Positions 39,006 through 55,638 of a stretch of DNA of 64,000 nucleotides are shown here, piece by piece (position 1 is the stretch's first letter; every line of letters begins with the position of its first letter). A program made the position numbers and the translations under genes. The notes beneath the pieces were generated by a model that ran no database searches, was not told the origin of the DNA, and was given only the letters and a program-made list of their open reading frames with translations. Source of the stretch: Curvularia clavata (Eukaryota); the NCBI GenBank assembly GCA_023920165.1, contig CP089278.1:62001-126000 (forward strand), in the 5' to 3' direction.

Positions 39006-40726
39006 CTAGGGATATATTCCGCTAACACAATCATCTAGATCTACTATAAATCGATCAAGAATATGTTTCTTGACATCAGGTCTAACAACTATGCGGAGTA
39101 CTCCAAGTGGTCCGCTGGAGAGGGGTATGTTGCAGTCTTTTGTACTTTTAGCTCTTTCATCATTTACATATTTTTGCAGCAATCCACCTACAAGGAACAG
39201 AATATCCAAGATTTCGAAGGGACTCCGAAATGACATAAAGTTGTGCTCTAGGATTCGAATATAGAAAGCTCTCGCTGAAGTTGAATGCGACTACAGGTAG
39301 CCCAGGGAAATAGTCTTGTATCTGGTCGTTCGTTTCGAATCCATCGGGCGTGTGTCTATAGACACTCTGTCGAATATGAAAAGAATCTGGTGTGAGAATA
39401 CCGCTCGTGATTTGTTTCGTTTCTTCGCACCTGGGAATAGATGTGATACACTTGAACCTCCCAGAGTCTTCCAGAGTGATACTTAGGTCCCTGGCACGGG
39501 TCATGCAATCTCGGATAATCTCTGCAGAACCATCGAATCCGTTTCGAACGAAGTTGTAGTACTGTAGGACCACCTGAAAACTAGGCTTAGAAAAGCTCAT
39601 GGTCCAGGACTGATAGATTTGATCAAGGTATTCAACATCGAATATCATTTCCTGAGGAATGTAACTCTTGTCGCGCCACACGATCTGTGAGAAAATCAGC
39701 CAAAACCTTCTCAAATCAGTGCGCTGCGGCTACCCACCCATCCAAGAGATGTTGGGACCTGACCAAATTTATGGCTGGATGTATTGATGGAGTTGACTCT
39801 CTTGAGTTTGAAATCCCTTGATATGTTTGAGCTGCATGATACGTGTAGTATGATAAAAGGCGAGGAAAGCTCACCATGTCAAATGCGATTGAACAAACGG
39901 CGCTACGAGACCTCCAGAAGCAGCGTCGACGTGAATTGGGATATCCAGTCCTTTGTTGGAATGCAATTCATCAAGTGCGGAAGAAAGTTGTTGAACAGGC
40001 TCATAGTGACCAGTGTAGGTGCTCCCTAGAACAGCAACTACCCCAACTATATTCATTGAGATCACGAAAGACAATACAGCAGATGCGGCATAGTTGACTT
40101 ACTAGTATTTTCATCGGCCATCGCAACAGCATCCCGGGTATTCATAACATACCCTGTCTCCTGTGTGACAGGAAGTATCCGTGCCTCAACATCGAAGTAT
40201 TGAGAGAACTTAGCACAGACCACATGGGCAATAGAGCTGAAGATTATGTTTGGCTGAGATGTGTTGGCTCCTTCTTCACGTTTTCTGCGTAGCCATTGTT
40301 TCTTCATAGCCAAGCATCCAAGCATAAGAGCTTCAGAGGAGCCTGTCGTAGCATTACCAACTGGTCTCTCTCCATCTTCTCCACCATTCCAAAGTGCTGC
40401 AAGGATCTTTGCACACTCCCGATGGATACTTTCCACATCAGCCAAAATTTCAGCACTACCCCAGTATTGAACCCACTCACTTAGTGACACCATTGTACTC
40501 GTGTTGATTTGACATGTTCTTCCGCAACGTTTCGCACAATAATTCGACCGGCAAATCATGGAAACTAGTGGTAGAGAACCTGAAGATGAAGTCGTTAGAG
40601 GGATTAACAAAAAATGTTGTGAACTCACGTAGCGAGATTAAGCTTTGGATCAAGATCCTCATCAAGGAATGAATTCACAATGCCTCTTGCGGCCTCAGCT
40701 GGCACGCCTGACATTGGCATGGCCAT
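39006..40726 (-). CDS. glutamate-decarboxylase-like group II PLP decarboxylase, multi-exon
   Basis: Motifs DPKLNLAT, TTGSSEALMLG.LAMKK.W, VLGSTYTG.YE, IHVDAASGG.VAPF, SINTSSHKFG (PLP Lys), LPVVAF, LRIVVR. Start codon tentative. Confidence 0.88.
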
Positions 40727-41582
40727 CACGATGATGGAACAATGGATTTAGAAATTTCCTTCGCTGTCGCGGTATTAAGTAGGAGAAATATGGAAAGTGC
40801 CTATGTCTCTCCTAAGAATTCGTGAATTATAGCGCAGTATAGGGCCGGAATAAATACCAAGTCTCTCTTCCTTCGTGACTAGTAGGCGCCGATTTCTCTG
40901 TGCTTTTTACCCCTATGTGTATCTTTGGGTGGTCACTAAAGCATGGAGCACACATCATTGAACTGGCTCTCTTTGCCAGTCAATGCATCTCGGAAGCTTG
41001 GCCCAACATGTCTGATCTTGGCAGAGGTTTCGACATGAGAGGCACCAGATTCAGCTCCATAGAGCACACCAATCGGACAGCGCGGAATTGGCTATACTGA
41101 GTGTTATGTGGCTTTTGTTTACTTCGACGTATGGAATACAAGAGACATGCATGCATCCAACCTGCCCGTGCTCACATCCCAGCAAATGCCCATAGACTAT
41201 GAAAAGGCCCGTTTTGAAACCTTGACGATCTGCAGAACGTATCGCATGGGAAATAACCCACTGTTAGTATAGAGTTTGAGGTCTCACCGAGTATTTGAAC
41301 ACAGGGTCTTAAGAAAAATGACTCAGTTTGGGTACCCTCAAGCGGTCTTGGCATAGTTCAGCGCCGAGAAAAGTTCTGATTACGTACCGTATAGCTGGTG
41401 CACTTAAGAACCTTATGACTTCATTTTCAAAAAGACTAATGCAACCAGGGGGAAGCTGACAATGTCTATCACAGTGACAAGAGCCGACATGCTTTCCGTC
41501 CTTCCCGTGATGCCGCCCTTCTCCCCGTCCCCCCCGCGATCCAACACGCATGCACATACCCCCCTTCTAGCTCTGCGAAGTC

Positions 41583-53615: not shown

Positions 53616-54072
53616 GATGTTGTGGTAGGTGGTTCACGAAAATCATATGGGTTGATGTGTGATCTTTTATATATGGTTTTCGATCAGAGTAGCATGGAAA
53701 TATTGCCACAGCATTAATATTGGTTTCCGAAATGCAACTTGGTTACATTAGCGCCAATTTATCCCTCACTGGGTGGGACGCTGTCTTGGCGGGTTCCTTG
53801 CATATCTGAATGCTGTTGAATATCGGAGTTGGTATCTGCTGGCGAGTCTCTTCGCAGTAACGCTCACGATGCGTCTAAACCCTATTTAGAAGTATATGAA
53901 AGCGCCGGACGACCTCCGGGCCGTATAAACTGTATATTAGTTACTCCAAGGCCGCTATGATGGAATATTCCACCAACCTCACCTTTCTACATTACTAACG
54001 CCAGCTTCGCGATCTTTGTGCTACCTCAAGCATCTGCCGTAAGCACTAGGAAGTATCATATCTAGTTTTGCC

Positions 54073-55638
54073 ATGGCTGCAGTGAGGCTTTGCCACTGTA
54101 CTCATCTATCACGGAGCACTGGTATGCAAATGATTACACAACCTCGTTGCAGTCATGAATCTCACGGTTATGCAGGTGGAAGTGAGCTTGACAGAACCCA
54201 AAGCGGTGATCCCTATCGGGATCCCGGTCAAAGTGTCCAAAGCCGAGTGTTGATAAAGTGGCCGGATCGGGACCCGCAACATCCGAGGAACTGGACTACC
54301 CGCAAGAAGATAACCACAACTATTATCACCTCTGCATTTACCTTGATGCCCCCTGTAGCGTCTACTATGGTAGCCCCTGGACTTGGCAATATGATGCAAG
54401 ACCTCAAGATTATCAGTAAAATCGAAGGCCAGCTAACAATATCCGTCTTTGTTCTCGCATATGCCGTGGGTCCTATGTTATTGGCACCCTTATCCGAAAT
54501 CTATGGGCGTGTTCCCGTTCTGCACGCATCAAACGCATGGTTCTTTTGTTTCAACCTTGTATGCGGGTTTGCGAAGACGAAGGAGCAGATGTTTGTGTTT
54601 CGATTTCTCAGTGGGCTGGGTGGAAGTGCTCCACTTGCCATAGGCGGAGGGGTCGTAAGCGACTGTTTCCACGCTGAACAAAGGGCCCAAGCAGTGGGCA
54701 TATATTCACTAACACCACTTCTGGGACCTGCAATTGGACCGATCGCGGGGGGTTTCATTGCACAGCATACTACCTGGAGATGGACTTTCTGGGCCACTTC
54801 CGCCGCTTCTGCCGCCATCCAGATTATGGCAGTAGTCTTGCTTCGAGAGTCGTTTGCTCCGAAAATTCTTCAACGACGCGCTGCGAAGCTAAGCAAGGAA
54901 ACAGATGGTCAGAATTTCTATACCGAGTTTGACAATGAATATAGGCCTGCGGCGGTTCTCACAAATGCCGTGGTCCGGCCATTTCGTTTCATCCTCACGC
55001 AGCCAATCGTCCAAGCGATGGCACTTTATCAATCCTTCCTGAATGGTGTTGTTTATTTGATGCTTTCTACGTTTCCGCGCCTTTGGAGGGACAACTATGG
55101 CCAGAGCATTAGCACCAGTGGCCTGAATTATATCTCTTTTGGCATTGGTCTCTTTCTGGGTGCCCAGATAACCGCCCCATTTAGTAATGCGGTCTATGTT
55201 TATCTTAAAAAGAAAAATAATGGAGGTGAGAAGCCTGAGTTCCGCGTTCCGGTAATCTTTGTCGGTGCAATATTGGTTCCTATTGGGCTTTTCTGGTATG
55301 GCTGGAGCGCACAGGAACGAAGTCATTGGGTCATGCCAAATATCGGGGCAGGTATATATGCAGCTGGAACGATTATTTGTTTTCAGTCCACGCAGGCATA
55401 TATACTTGATGCATACACAAAATATGCTGCAAGTGCCACAGCTGCTACTATGGTCTTACGCTCCCTGACTGGGTTTGGGTTCCCACTTTTTGCACCACTC
55501 CTGTATACCAGGCTGCATTACGGATGGGGGAGCTCACTGCTTAGTTTTTTGGGTATAGGAATTGGCATTCCGGCGCCAATTTTATTTTGGAAATATGGTG
55601 AGACTTTAAGGTCGAACAGTGTATTCACTGGAGAATGA
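54073..55638 (+). CDS. MFS drug:H+ antiporter (DHA1 family)
   Basis: Motifs DPQHPRNW, GPMLLAPLSEIYGR, FRFLSGLGGSA, GPAIGPIAGG, WRWTFW, PEFR, YAASA. Confidence 0.93.
   Translation: MAAVRLCHCTHLSRSTGMQMITQPRCSHESHGYAGGSELDRTQSGDPYRDPGQSVQSRVLIKWPDRDPQHPRNWTTRKKITTTIITSAFTLMPPVASTMVAPGLGNMMQDLKIISKIEGQLTISVFVLAYAVGPMLLAPLSEIYGRVPVLHASNAWFFCFNLVCGFAKTKEQMFVFRFLSGLGGSAPLAIGGGVVSDCFHAEQRAQAVGIYSLTPLLGPAIGPIAGGFIAQHTTWRWTFWATSAASAAIQIMAVVLLRESFAPKILQRRAAKLSKETDGQNFYTEFDNEYRPAAVLTNAVVRPFRFILTQPIVQAMALYQSFLNGVVYLMLSTFPRLWRDNYGQSISTSGLNYISFGIGLFLGAQITAPFSNAVYVYLKKKNNGGEKPEFRVPVIFVGAILVPIGLFWYGWSAQERSHWVMPNIGAGIYAAGTIICFQSTQAYILDAYTKYAASATAATMVLRSLTGFGFPLFAPLLYTRLHYGWGSSLLSFLGIGIGIPAPILFWKYGETLRSNSVFTGE

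Follow-up and report, generated by a model that had tools for sequence, protein, structure and literature searches.

Gene content and borders of the locus

The window analysed was a stretch of 64,000 nucleotides from Curvularia clavata. Pfam searches and spliced gene models bore out a preliminary description of eight contiguous, intact genes in this window, all of which were found at the coordinates given in that description (39006 to 55638). The introns of the eight gene models were all of the GT..AG type with lengths of 49 to 82 nt, the reading frames were all open, and the products of 41586-42551 and 44174-45106 were identical to annotated C. clavata proteins. Two divergent promoter regions had been proposed, and these intervals matched the gene starts exactly: 43066..43530 separates the starts of the genes for an ANL enzyme (43065) and a Cp1B-like ligase (43531), and 53616..54072 separates those for a heme-oxygenase-like protein (HDO; 53615) and an MFS transporter (54073).

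A domain scan was performed on stop-to-stop open reading frames (ORFs) of at least 150 aa across the window and of at least 70 aa in the flanks. The scanned ORFs yielded no domain of an NRPS, a PKS, a terpene synthase or a DMATS, in agreement with the earlier report of their absence, and no carrier protein gene was seen in this same set. The claim that the cluster is bordered by decayed genes found support on the left side only. The left flank contained an amino-acid-permease remnant (37483-37779), matching only positions 284-344 of a 470-position profile, and a galactose-oxidase-like gene broken by one in-frame stop (36253-36255), while no recognisable domain was found among ORFs of at least 70 aa in the right flank (55.8 to 60.7 kb).

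The AspRS paralogue, the iron oxidases and their associated genes

The gene at 46499..48173 (minus strand; four exons, 489 aa, with PF00152 detected on three exons) encodes a paralogue of the eukaryotic cytosolic aspartyl-tRNA synthetase (AspRS), and its top PDB matches were to cytosolic AspRS (E=3e-27 and 7e-22). Motif 2 (FRAE), motif 3 (GxGxGxxR) and the QSxQ..K and SGSQR residues are retained. The motif-2 loop is longer, conserved AspRS positions are altered (LDxEM to LDIGM and RPFY to RQFN), and the OB anticodon-binding domain was detected only below threshold (E=0.048, 14 bits versus a cut-off of 27). No match to this domain was found in the AspRS-like protein of another locus, L010. A sister subfamily of AspRS-like proteins encoded beside related HDOs (loci L007, L024 and L035) cannot be AspRS because the aspartate-side-chain-binding lysine and the QR pair have been lost.

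The HDO gene (51324..53615, minus strand) has a single exon and encodes a membrane-anchored tandem protein of 763 aa (PF14518, E=3e-34) with an N-terminal membrane helix, an N-terminal HDO domain (aa 58-362) and a second HO-like domain (aa 517-763). More than 1192 fungal relatives were found, and none was detected in prokaryote genomes with the sequence patterns used. Residues E201, E202, H212, E269, E278, H304, D308 and H314 were invariant, with the metal ligands unchanged across 29 sequences. The AF2 model had a pLDDT of 78. In fold comparisons, the catalytic domain was nearest to RohS (Z 18.2), SznF (17.7) and HrmI (17.5), with a lower value for BesC (10.7), to which this protein had previously been likened; the C-terminal domain gave a Z of 15.2 with HrmI. 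In fold, the catalytic domain is thus nearer to these N-oxygenases than to BesC, and this similarity, at 11 to 15% identity, suggests N-oxygenation. RohS (azomycin), SznF (streptozotocin) and HrmI (hormaomycin) share with the HDO a heme-oxygenase-like helical fold, matching over ∼250 residues, and a conserved set of carboxylates and histidines, the E..G.G....H..LY helix aligning with that of RohS. Unlike these proteins, the HDO is eukaryotic, has a membrane helix at its N terminus and bears a second HO-like domain without an obvious three-histidine set.

The other iron oxidase is an IPNS/ACCO-type Fe(II)/2-oxoglutarate (2OG) oxygenase (49060..49973, minus strand; three exons, 270 aa, PF14226 and PF03171), which has the HxD...H residues and whose top PDB match was 3oox (E=2e-8). 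In metagenome contigs carrying HDO relatives, a 2OG gene was present in 21 of 77 loci and an adjoining AspRS-like gene in 9 of 77. These proportions were 7/7 and 6/7, respectively, for the closest loci, defined by an HDO identity of 45% or more with no less than 4 kb of flanking sequence (n = 7). The genes occurred in three different orders and orientations. None of the 77 loci, including the seven closest, had a Cp1B-like, ANL or decarboxylase gene beside the HDO relative. The 2OG oxygenase gene hence keeps company with the genes for the HDO and the AspRS-like protein, and not with those for the ligases.

Two further genes belong to this group. A GGACT/AIG2-like gamma-glutamyl(amine) cyclotransferase is encoded at 45442..46181 (plus strand; two exons, 224 aa; PF06094, 27.6 bits versus a cut-off of 22.8), and its orthologue adjoins the HDO gene in loci L001 and L010. 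The single-exon MFS gene (54073..55638, plus strand; 521 aa; PF07690, E=1e-41) encodes a likely exporter. The AspRS paralogue, IPNS-type 2OG oxygenase and tandem HDO, often with GGACT, and a transporter constitute a conserved, uncharacterised ascomycete module, termed part A.

The ligases, the decarboxylase and the E-64 pathway

The ATP-grasp gene (yc1106_06671; 43531..45109, plus strand; two exons, 507 aa) had no match in the copy of Pfam used but matched PDB entry 9CJN, 'Ligase Cp1B', with E=9.2e-34 for exon 2 and E=3.5e-20 for exon 1. The four catalytic residues are kept, WRPD and EIN corresponding to Cp1B R139, D141, E163 and N165, and the pocket is still hydrophobic (F175 to I, V228 unchanged, V477 to L and I488 to F). 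Identity to Cp1B was ∼35%, as counted from the alignment. The protein falls into a small group of its own, in which two representatives are close to it (59%); all others are at no more than 42%.

The divergent neighbour of this gene (yc1106_06670; 41583..43065, minus strand; two exons, 477 aa, weak PF00501) encodes a PaaK-like ANL adenylate-forming enzyme that is a candidate amide bond synthetase of the CpD type. It matched phenylacetate-CoA ligase in PDB (E=9.4e-5), and its 70 relatives included proteins with 35 to 43% identity in Metarhizium, Penicillium, Aspergillus, Fusarium and Colletotrichum. The ANL portion of a merged CpB-TauD-ANL protein (P0359) matched the window enzyme (E=1e-8), and homology places the latter in the ANL family partnering Cp1B-like ligases. 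The two genes, adjacent here, have neighbouring protein numbers in Phaeosphaeriaceae sp. PMI808 (GQ44DRAFT_744279 and 744280). The last gene (39006..40726, minus strand; seven exons, 465 aa, PF00282 on three exon ORFs) encodes a group II PLP decarboxylase of the glutamate decarboxylase (GAD) type; its spliced model has canonical sites and a PLP-lysine motif, SINTSSHKFG, and all eight PDB matches of exon 6 were to glutamate decarboxylases (best E=1.2e-12).

A TauD domain was present in 16 of 27 mostly long Cp1B-like representatives. No TauD-type domain was found anywhere in the 64-kb window, and the window 2OG enzyme is unrelated to the TauD parts of the Cp1B-like proteins (best E=0.16). The oxygenase CpA of the E-64 pathway would be of the TauD type, a designation taken from the fused gene models and not from a statement in the E-64 paper.

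The pathway by which Aspergillus flavus and A. oryzae make the protease inhibitor E-64 (cp1/cp2) was characterised in 2025 (Liu et al., Nat Chem Biol 2025, PMC12568646); that report places E-64-type cassettes in over 40 genera, Metarhizium among them, and gives ∼50% identity between Cp1 and Cp2. The cluster resembles the E-64 pathway in its Cp1B-family ATP-grasp ligase, whose catalytic residues are retained, in a second ligase, of the ANL family, encoded divergently right next to the first, in its PLP decarboxylase and in the absence of an NRPS, and it likely shares the logic of joining an acid, an L-amino acid and an amine. It differs in lacking a TauD-type oxygenase, its sole 2OG enzyme being of the IPNS type and from another conserved module, in the GAD type of its decarboxylase, in four further genes (tandem HDO, AspRS paralogue, GGACT and MFS) and in an identity to Cp1B lower than that between Cp1 and Cp2. 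As the ATP-grasp enzyme is a Cp1B homologue, part of the cluster matches a characterised fungal system. The view that this was not a characterised fungal cluster thus stands for the whole, of which no description was found in the literature searched, but not for this part. The suggested analogy of the ATP-grasp enzyme to BesA or the butirosin ligase (BtrJ) found no support here, the homology identified being with Cp1B.

Conservation, regulation and alternative readings

Parastagonospora nodorum carries all eight genes as SNOG_15427-15434, with order and orientation unchanged, with SNOG_15428 encoding the HDO and SNOG_15432 the Cp1B-like ligase; the MFS (SNOG_15427) and decarboxylase (SNOG_15434) orthologues were assigned by position. 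P. nodorum orthologue coding sequences of 813, 1470, 1524 and 1434 nt, and their exon numbers, are those of the C. clavata models. In M. album, M. rileyi and M. acridum the accession numbers of the HDO and ANL proteins differ by two, and in Conoideocrella their locus tags differ by four. A search for conserved co-localisation, proposed in the preliminary description, was thus answered both by the P. nodorum block and by the proximity of HDO and ANL genes in Clavicipitaceae. Cp1B/ANL pairs also occur without a nearby HDO, and in Periconia the pair and the HDO are on different contigs. The Cp1B-family ligase, the ANL enzyme and the GAD-type decarboxylase are termed part B here. As each part is found without the other elsewhere, parts A and B can work alone.

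Co-expression, also proposed as a check, was found for the P. nodorum orthologues, all eight of which were expressed in vitro in the wild type and were almost silent in a pf2 knock-out. Counts fell from 6614-13048 to 14-27 for SNOG_15429 and from 2048-2897 to 3-8 for SNOG_15432, while SNOG_15426, the next gene outside the cluster, had counts of 0 in all samples. PnPf2 ChIP summits were located in the promoters of the P. nodorum 2OG, Cp1B-like/ANL and decarboxylase genes, with a -log10 Q of 370 in the ANL/Cp1B-like intergenic region. This co-regulation is not cluster specific because PnPf2 acts globally: its knock-out lowered the expression of 602 genes (PMC11419344). The co-regulation data come from P. 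nodorum, a wheat pathogen in which PnPf2 is a virulence regulator, and not from C. clavata.

These results support the earlier outline of a core-less fungal cluster that encodes a pump and two iron oxidases alongside three carboxyl-activating enzymes. On sequence evidence, the cluster joins both amide-forming enzyme types of the E-64 pathway to the trio of AspRS paralogue, 2OG oxygenase and tandem HDO. We estimate a probability of about 60% that parts A and B form one co-regulated, core-less Pleosporales cluster for a probably N-oxygenated, aspartate-derived pseudo-peptide, a variant of the E-64 logic. In the pathway that we infer, substrates, order of steps, N-oxygenation and product are all predictions. 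The AspRS paralogue would bind and adenylate aspartate or a close C4 analogue, which part A would convert into an oxidised, probably N-oxygenated acid. Part B would follow the E-64 assembly logic: the Cp1B-family ligase would couple a hydrophobic L-amino acid with a carboxylic acid, and the ligase product would then be amidated by the PaaK-like ANL amide bond synthetase, using an amine from the GAD-type decarboxylase, before the MFS pump exports the final product. As the TauD-type oxygenase is missing, the predicted acid-amino acid-amine pseudo-peptide would carry a head group from part A and not trans-epoxysuccinate. Since a virulence regulator activates the whole of the P. nodorum counterpart together, the product is probably a small pseudo-peptide. 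In the bacterial valanimycin and cupin/MetRS-like hydrazine pathways, a synthetase acylates a hydroxylamine before the N-N bond forms (PMC11705231). By analogy only, these resemble the cluster in pairing an N-hydroxylating enzyme with an aminoacyl-tRNA-synthetase-type enzyme; they differ in using a flavin monooxygenase and not an HDO, SerRS or MetRS and not AspRS, and a zinc cupin and not a 2OG oxygenase.

Extra synthetase copies are known resistance genes in antibiotic clusters, and the AspRS paralogue could be such a self-resistance copy, sustaining translation in the producer of an aspartate antimetabolite or AspRS inhibitor. Its derivation from cytosolic AspRS, the retention of the ATP- and aspartate-binding K, QR and D residues and its co-expression with the cluster in P. 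nodorum are consistent with this idea. The barely recognisable OB domain, absent from the L010 protein, the longer motif-2 loop, the altered AspRS positions and the sister subfamily that cannot be AspRS all argue against it, leaving self-resistance rather unlikely. The beta-ethynylserine pathway uses an HDO (BesC), a PLP enzyme, an ATP-grasp ligase (BesA) and 2OG oxygenases, and the butirosin side chain requires an ATP-grasp ligase, a decarboxylase and a GGCT. Given these overlapping enzyme classes, a butirosin-like logic for the ATP-grasp/decarboxylase/GGCT trio is possible by analogy, and a route can be envisaged that has the HDO cleave or desaturate the side chain of an amino acid, with a gamma-glutamyl group put on for protection by the ATP-grasp enzyme and taken off again by GGACT. 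A GAD-type decarboxylase together with GGACT does suggest glutamate chemistry, but such a route is made quite improbable by an HDO fold nearer to N-oxygenases than to BesC, a Cp1B-family ligase with hydrophobic pocket residues and the lack of a carrier protein gene among the scanned ORFs.

The cluster might instead be an ordinary E-64-type epoxysuccinyl-peptide cluster, with epoxysuccinate made by the IPNS-type enzyme in place of CpA and the roles of the HDO, AspRS paralogue and GGACT confined to tailoring. A Cp1B-family ligase, an ANL enzyme, a decarboxylase and one 2OG oxygenase are all there, and the cassettes described in the E-64 paper extend to Metarhizium, where the HDO is two genes from the ANL gene. 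This reading is improbable given that the 2OG enzyme is of another family than the TauD domains found joined to Cp1B-like proteins, that the 2OG gene stays with HDO and AspRS-like genes in ligase-free loci and that the ligase is a distant, separately grouped relative of Cp1B. The occurrence of each part alone elsewhere would also fit two unrelated small clusters lying side by side, one consisting of the AspRS-like, 2OG, HDO, GGACT and MFS genes and the other of a partial E-64 cassette minus its oxygenase. Such a chance arrangement is very improbable: the HDO and ANL genes are neighbours in four Clavicipitaceae species too, the GGACT gene of the conserved set is placed between the Cp1B-like and AspRS-like genes, C. 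clavata and P. nodorum have all eight genes ordered and oriented alike, and the eight P. nodorum orthologues go on and off together.

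The eight-gene cluster and its Parastagonospora nodorum counterpart

All eight genes of the cluster (39006-55638) were open from ATG to stop, bearing out the intactness claimed in the preliminary description, and a Pfam scan of long stop-to-stop open reading frames (ORFs) placed the eight proposed enzyme and transporter families at the coordinates given there; the two divergent intergenic regions, 43066-43530 and 53616-54072, matched exactly. Spliced models were assembled by eye on three-frame views, followed by a coordinate check, and every intron in them was of the GT..AG type and 49 to 82 nt in length. 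The resulting proteins were a decarboxylase of 465 aa, an ANL enzyme of 477 aa, a Cp1B-like ligase of 507 aa, a GGACT of 224 aa, an AspRS paralogue of 489 aa, a 2OG oxygenase of 270 aa, an HDO of 763 aa and an MFS transporter of 521 aa. A frameshift in the decarboxylase was only apparent, being explained by two normal introns. Remote comparisons of these spliced proteins were made exon by exon. The window DNA is fungal, and the Curvularia clavata proteins yc1106_06671 and yc1106_06670 were identical to the Cp1B-like and ANL exons, respectively.

Co-localisation of the two parts of the cluster was evident from accessions and locus tags in other fungi. In P. nodorum, the HDO is SNOG_15428 and the Cp1B-like protein SNOG_15432, while the HDO and ANL genes lie two accession numbers apart in Metarhizium album, M. 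rileyi and M. acridum, the gene between them in Metarhizium being MAC_09700 or its equivalent, and four locus tags apart in Conoideocrella. For the HDO, Cp1B-like and ANL proteins of Phaeosphaeriaceae sp. PMI808, the longest contig is in each case listed as 94,684 bases. In the portion of the supplementary data of Jones et al. (2019) utilized here (PMC6828707, supplementary file 2), the coordinates, strands and exons of SNOG_15427 to SNOG_15434 mirrored the order, orientation and CDS lengths of the window's genes.

The same source provides in vitro read counts for strain SN15 and a knock-out of pf2, the gene for the virulence regulator PnPf2 (PMC6828707). These data concern the orthologous cluster, P. 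nodorum belonging to another family of the same order. Wild-type counts of 164-424 (SNOG_15427), 89-199 (SNOG_15428), 6614-13048 (SNOG_15429), 1863-3737 (SNOG_15430), 57-101 (SNOG_15431), 2048-2897 (SNOG_15432), 2045-3007 (SNOG_15433) and 665-1106 (SNOG_15434) fell in the knock-out to 0-1, 0, 14-27, 3-15, 0, 3-8, 4-8 and 12-21, respectively; SNOG_15426 had zero counts in all samples (PMC6828707). The co-expression check proposed in the preliminary description was thus positive in the orthologous cluster, all eight genes dropping to near zero without PnPf2, a difference of about 50- to 500-fold. Binding of the regulator was apparent from the ChIP summits tabulated by John et al. (2024) (PMC11419344, file 10), which were located in the promoter of SNOG_15429 (−log10 Q of 180 and 493), in the divergent promoter of SNOG_15432 and SNOG_15433 (370), upstream of SNOG_15434 (227) and within SNOG_15430 (473) and SNOG_15433 (516). 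The SNOG_15429 promoter served as a ChIP-qPCR control in Table 1 of that study, and this test locus is the sole cluster gene named in the parts of the paper drawn on here (PMC11419344). The main text of PMC6828707 contains no mention of a gene cluster, biosynthesis, an oxygenase or the SNOG_154 genes. As PnPf2 controls hundreds of genes (PMC11419344), the co-regulation speaks for an eight-gene unit without being specific to the cluster.

An alternative in which two unrelated clusters merely lie next to each other was rejected, as all eight P. nodorum orthologues are co-regulated and retain the same order and orientation. The orthologues belong to the genes that PnPf2 binds most strongly and that depend on it most. 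On the improbable reading of the cluster as a route to an N-N or other N-oxygenated warhead (see below), this wheat pathogen could hence be making a virulence-associated metabolite that has gone unrecognised. The dependence on PnPf2 also raises the question of whether the product contributes to disease. A cluster that is both bound by and dependent on PnPf2 also offers a ready wild-type/mutant pair for product discovery.

The PnPf2 motif M1 matched the window twice, at 43988 and 50736, on both occasions within the cluster, a number that provides no evidence either way (1.87 expected; two reached in 59 of 100 shuffles). Motif M2 was absent from the window, even when one mismatch was allowed. 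The M1 match at 50736-50745 falls between the 2OG and HDO genes, in a long intergenic region whose P. nodorum counterpart bears the strongest PnPf2 ChIP summit.

A Cp1B-family ligase and a candidate amide bond synthetase of the E-64 type

The cysteine-protease inhibitor E-64 is in standard use, yet the solution of its pathway dates only from 2025 (Liu et al., PMC12568646). The sections of that paper utilized here describe cp1 and cp2 clusters encoding four proteins: CpA, an Fe/2OG oxygenase that epoxidises fumarate and acts as trans-epoxysuccinate synthase; CpB, a hypothetical protein without a Pfam domain that was demonstrated to be an ATP-grasp ligase; CpC, an optional PLP decarboxylase; and CpD, an ANL-family amide bond synthetase. 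The Pfam-less gene of the window encodes a homologue of Cp1B (PDB 9CJN; E=9.2e-34 for exon 2 and 3.5e-20 for exon 1), with an identity of ∼35% (96 of 274 aligned positions in the exon 2 alignment). Residues R139, D141, E163 and N165, named as catalytic in Cp1B (PMC12568646), were all retained, as WRPD and EIN, in an alignment with 9CJN, and the pocket was hydrophobic throughout (F175 to I, V228 unchanged, V477 to L and I488 to F). An exhaustive profile-free search detected 280 representatives of the family at E<=0.001; the nearest two had 59% identity and the next no more than 42%. Among these representatives, at 38% identity, was a protein of Mycena galopus, a species named in the E-64 paper as a carrier of an E-64-like cluster (PMC12568646).

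The divergent neighbour of the Cp1B-like gene encodes a PaaK-like ANL enzyme, a candidate amide bond synthetase of the CpD type. Its 70 relatives (35 to 43% identity) came from Metarhizium, Penicillium, Aspergillus, Fusarium and Colletotrichum, genera that occur in the E-64 paper's list (PMC12568646), and the ANL portion of P0359, a Cp1B-related protein model in which CpB, TauD and ANL sequences are merged, matched the window's enzyme with an E value of 1e-8. The decarboxylase exhibited PF00282 on three exons and the PLP-lysine motif SINTSSHKFG in the spliced model, and all eight of its PDB matches were glutamate decarboxylases. A PLP decarboxylase is an optional part of the E-64 cassette; that of the window is of the glutamate decarboxylase (GAD) type. 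The GGACT matched PF06094 with 27.6 bits, relative to a gathering cut-off of 22.8.

A domain scan was performed on 27 Cp1B-like representatives, comprising P0239 and 26 of the 28 that were longer than 575 aa (P0308 and P0347 were left out). A TauD-family domain followed the ligase part in 16, five had IucA/IucC and FhuF domains (siderophore-type synthetase) and six had no extra domain; no domain match was obtained for three representatives of ordinary length. In annotations, ligases of this family (P0219 to P0359) are frequently combined with a TauD-type dioxygenase or IucA/IucC-FhuF in a single protein, and these composites are either true fusions or merged gene calls. When the TauD parts of eight such proteins were compared with the whole 64-kb window, zero matches were detected, and the window's 2OG oxygenase was unrelated to the Cp1B-linked TauD parts (best E=0.16). 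The latter enzyme is of the IPNS/ACCO type (PF14226 and PF03171), its best PDB match being 3oox (E=2e-8). From the composite gene models, CpA is predicted to be of the TauD type. Thus, with the Cp1B-like and ANL genes present and TauD absent, two of the three minimal E-64 cassette genes have counterparts, that of the ANL gene being a candidate, and the usual oxygenase type is missing. A canonical E-64 cluster was rejected, there being no TauD-type match in the window and no relationship between its 2OG enzyme and the Cp1B-linked domains.

The preliminary description had not recognised a characterised fungal cluster here. This holds for the combination as a whole, of which no description was found in the mainly open literature searched, but not for the ligase part, which matches the E-64 system (Cp1B, E=9.2e-34). 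Two ligase types of the E-64 pathway are here apparently re-used with a different, undescribed building-block module, a combination suggestive of novel pseudo-peptide chemistry and of new substrate scopes for both of these useful amide-forming biocatalysts.

A putative building-block module and a proposed pathway

The HDO (PF14518, E=3e-34) had more than 1192 relatives at E<=0.001. Among the 120 matches listed, all of those with a source name were fungal; they were mostly annotated as hypothetical and most were ∼750 aa in length, the closest named one being from P. nodorum (84%). No relatives were found in prokaryote genomes by a scan with patterns from the HDO alignment. Two relatives of ∼940 aa from Orbilia oligospora (P0077 and P0078) carry a class I/II aminotransferase domain, PF00155, which hints, at the level of sequence, that the family may act on amino acids.

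Sequence searches with the HDO gave no PDB match and only a marginal profile match (9pfw, E=0.14). An AlphaFold model (mean pLDDT 78) was built on an alignment of 29 sequences, in which E201, E202, H212, E269, E278, H304, D308 and H314, the putative metal ligands, were invariant; the E..H helix aligns with that of RohS. Foldseek with the whole 763-aa model returned nothing at E<=0.001, and the Z scores reported here derive from re-alignment of its matches. Residues 58-362 of the model matched RohS with a Z score of 18.2 (rmsd 3.2, 247 aligned), SznF with 17.7 and HrmI with 17.5, the N-oxygenases together spanning 15.6 to 18.2; scores were lower for FlcD (13.0), CADD (11.2), BesC (10.7), PolF (10.4) and UndA (9.6), values below ∼13 carrying little meaning for helical bundles. 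The BesC analogy drawn in the preliminary description was, therefore, abandoned in favour of RohS, SznF and HrmI, which are nearer in fold (17.5-18.2 versus 10.7). The catalytic domain of the model resembles N-oxygenases, and the enzyme is, by this fold ranking, a candidate N-oxygenase. A second HO-like domain (residues 517-763; pLDDT 80 when folded alone) matched HrmI with a Z of 15.2 and CADD with 12.9, but contained few conserved histidines; no usable match to this C-terminal part was found in the protein atlas. Residues 1-37 form a hydrophobic helix. Public annotations of 670 aa (C. clavata and the NCBI version for P. nodorum) omit the first 93 codons, corresponding to 53336-53615 and including this helix; the ORF is open there, and other sources have versions of 762 and 763 aa.

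The AspRS paralogue exhibited PF00152 on three exons, and its catalytic exons matched eukaryotic cytosolic AspRS with E values of 3e-27 and 7e-22. Alignment with yeast, human and other AspRS sequences indicated retention of FRAE, RHLTE, QSxQ..K, D..RGxEI.SGSQR and GxGxGxxR; we take QSxQ..K and SGSQR to be the aspartate-binding residues and FRAE and GxGxGxxR to be motifs 2 and 3 of the class II core. Changes were LDxEM to LDIGM, RPFY to RQFN and two additional residues in the motif-2 loop. The OB anticodon-binding domain PF01336 was below threshold (E=0.048, 14 bits versus a cut-off of 27), and no match to it was obtained for the AspRS-like orthologue in L010, one of the metagenome loci described below. 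Across related loci, two AspRS-like subfamilies were distinguished: in that of the window, the lysine and QR pair for aspartate binding persist, whereas that of L007, L024 and L035 has lost both and kept the ATP motifs. We interpret these proteins as a probable family of biosynthetic enzymes that descend from AspRS and form adenylates, and predict that aspartate, or a compound close to it, is still bound by the window's member.

Metagenome contigs were scanned with the 29-sequence HDO alignment, yielding 77 loci, and neighbouring genes were sought by tblastn with the eight models. A 2OG gene was present in 21 of the 77 loci, an AspRS-like gene in nine and a GGACT in two, while the Cp1B-like, ANL, decarboxylase and window-type MFS genes were detected by tblastn in none. 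The seven closest loci, defined by an HDO identity of at least 45% and at least 4 kb of flank, all contained the 2OG gene and six of them the AspRS-like gene, although near-duplicates (L001/L010, L057/L060/L063 and L007/L024) mean that independent lineages are fewer than loci. The trio of AspRS-like, 2OG and HDO genes was found in three different orders and orientations, favouring selection on proximity over plain inherited synteny. Nearby, L010, L057, L024 and L035 carried an MFS gene belonging to another subfamily, and L024 and L035 a P450 gene. The AspRS-like gene in L057, L060 and L063 (∼6400-8000) contained several in-frame stops outside the expected intron positions in tblastn alignments; these may reflect additional introns, gene decay or errors of assembly.

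A joint mechanism, to which we assign a probability of roughly 60%, would combine both parts of the cluster. From aspartate, the trio would derive an acid that is oxidised and probably N-oxygenated. The Cp1B-like enzyme would join a carboxylic acid and a hydrophobic L-amino acid, to the product of which the ANL enzyme would add an amine made by the GAD-type decarboxylase, and the MFS pump would provide for export. The GGACT, whose place in this scheme is highly tentative, may release an amine from a gamma-glutamyl intermediate. A more specific version, in which the trio is a fungal route to an N-N unit (hydrazine or azoxy type) or another N-oxygenated warhead, appears improbable and draws on analogy. 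An amine would first be N-hydroxylated by the HDO, and the resulting hydroxylamine would receive an aspartyl group from the AspRS paralogue. The 2OG oxygenase would then finish the N-N unit or set it free, for the Cp1B-like and ANL ligases to incorporate into a pseudo-peptide. Such a trio would copy the bacterial pattern of N-hydroxylation and synthetase-type acylation, which, in the parts of PMC11705231 drawn on here, involves seryl-tRNA in valanimycin biosynthesis and MetRS-like enzymes that acylate hydroxylamine in hydrazine synthesis.

With its more than 1192 ascomycete relatives, the tandem HDO of the module would be the first HDO from a fungus to come under study, and the AspRS paralogue has apparently been recruited to secondary metabolism. 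In the mainly open literature, no account was found of this gene combination, of a fungal HDO or of an AspRS paralogue in a fungal cluster. The accessible portion of a 2026 HDO review yielded no mention of fungal, eukaryotic or Aspergillus HDOs, and that of a 2024 review of N-N bond formation no fungal N-N-forming enzyme.

Borders and flanking sequence

The decayed borders proposed in the preliminary description were recovered in part, on the left only, as what remains of an amino-acid permease gene and as a galactose-oxidase-like gene interrupted by a single in-frame stop; nothing recognisable was present on the right. The galactose-oxidase-like gene (34636-37059; PAN, Kelch and GO-like E-set domains) consists of two same-frame ORFs separated by a stop at 36253-36255, which is either a nonsense mutation or an intron-borne stop. 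No tRNA genes and no meaningful repeats were found in the window. The region from 18000 to 26000 is AT rich (GC of 0.35-0.40), with a strong negative AT skew and zero ORFs of at least 150 aa, and may represent either a decayed repeat or sequence altered by RIP. A run of genes at 3538-17310 resembles a set for the breakdown of hydantoins or of N-carbamoyl amino acids, comprising an M20 peptidase (3538-4035), an MFS transporter (6322-7131), an Asp/Glu/hydantoin racemase (9936-10778), an amidohydrolase (11117-12613), a D-2-hydroxyacid dehydrogenase (13116-14177) and a CN-hydrolase (16375-17310). A fungal-rhodopsin-domain gene on the plus strand at 29447-30793 is present in three ORF pieces.
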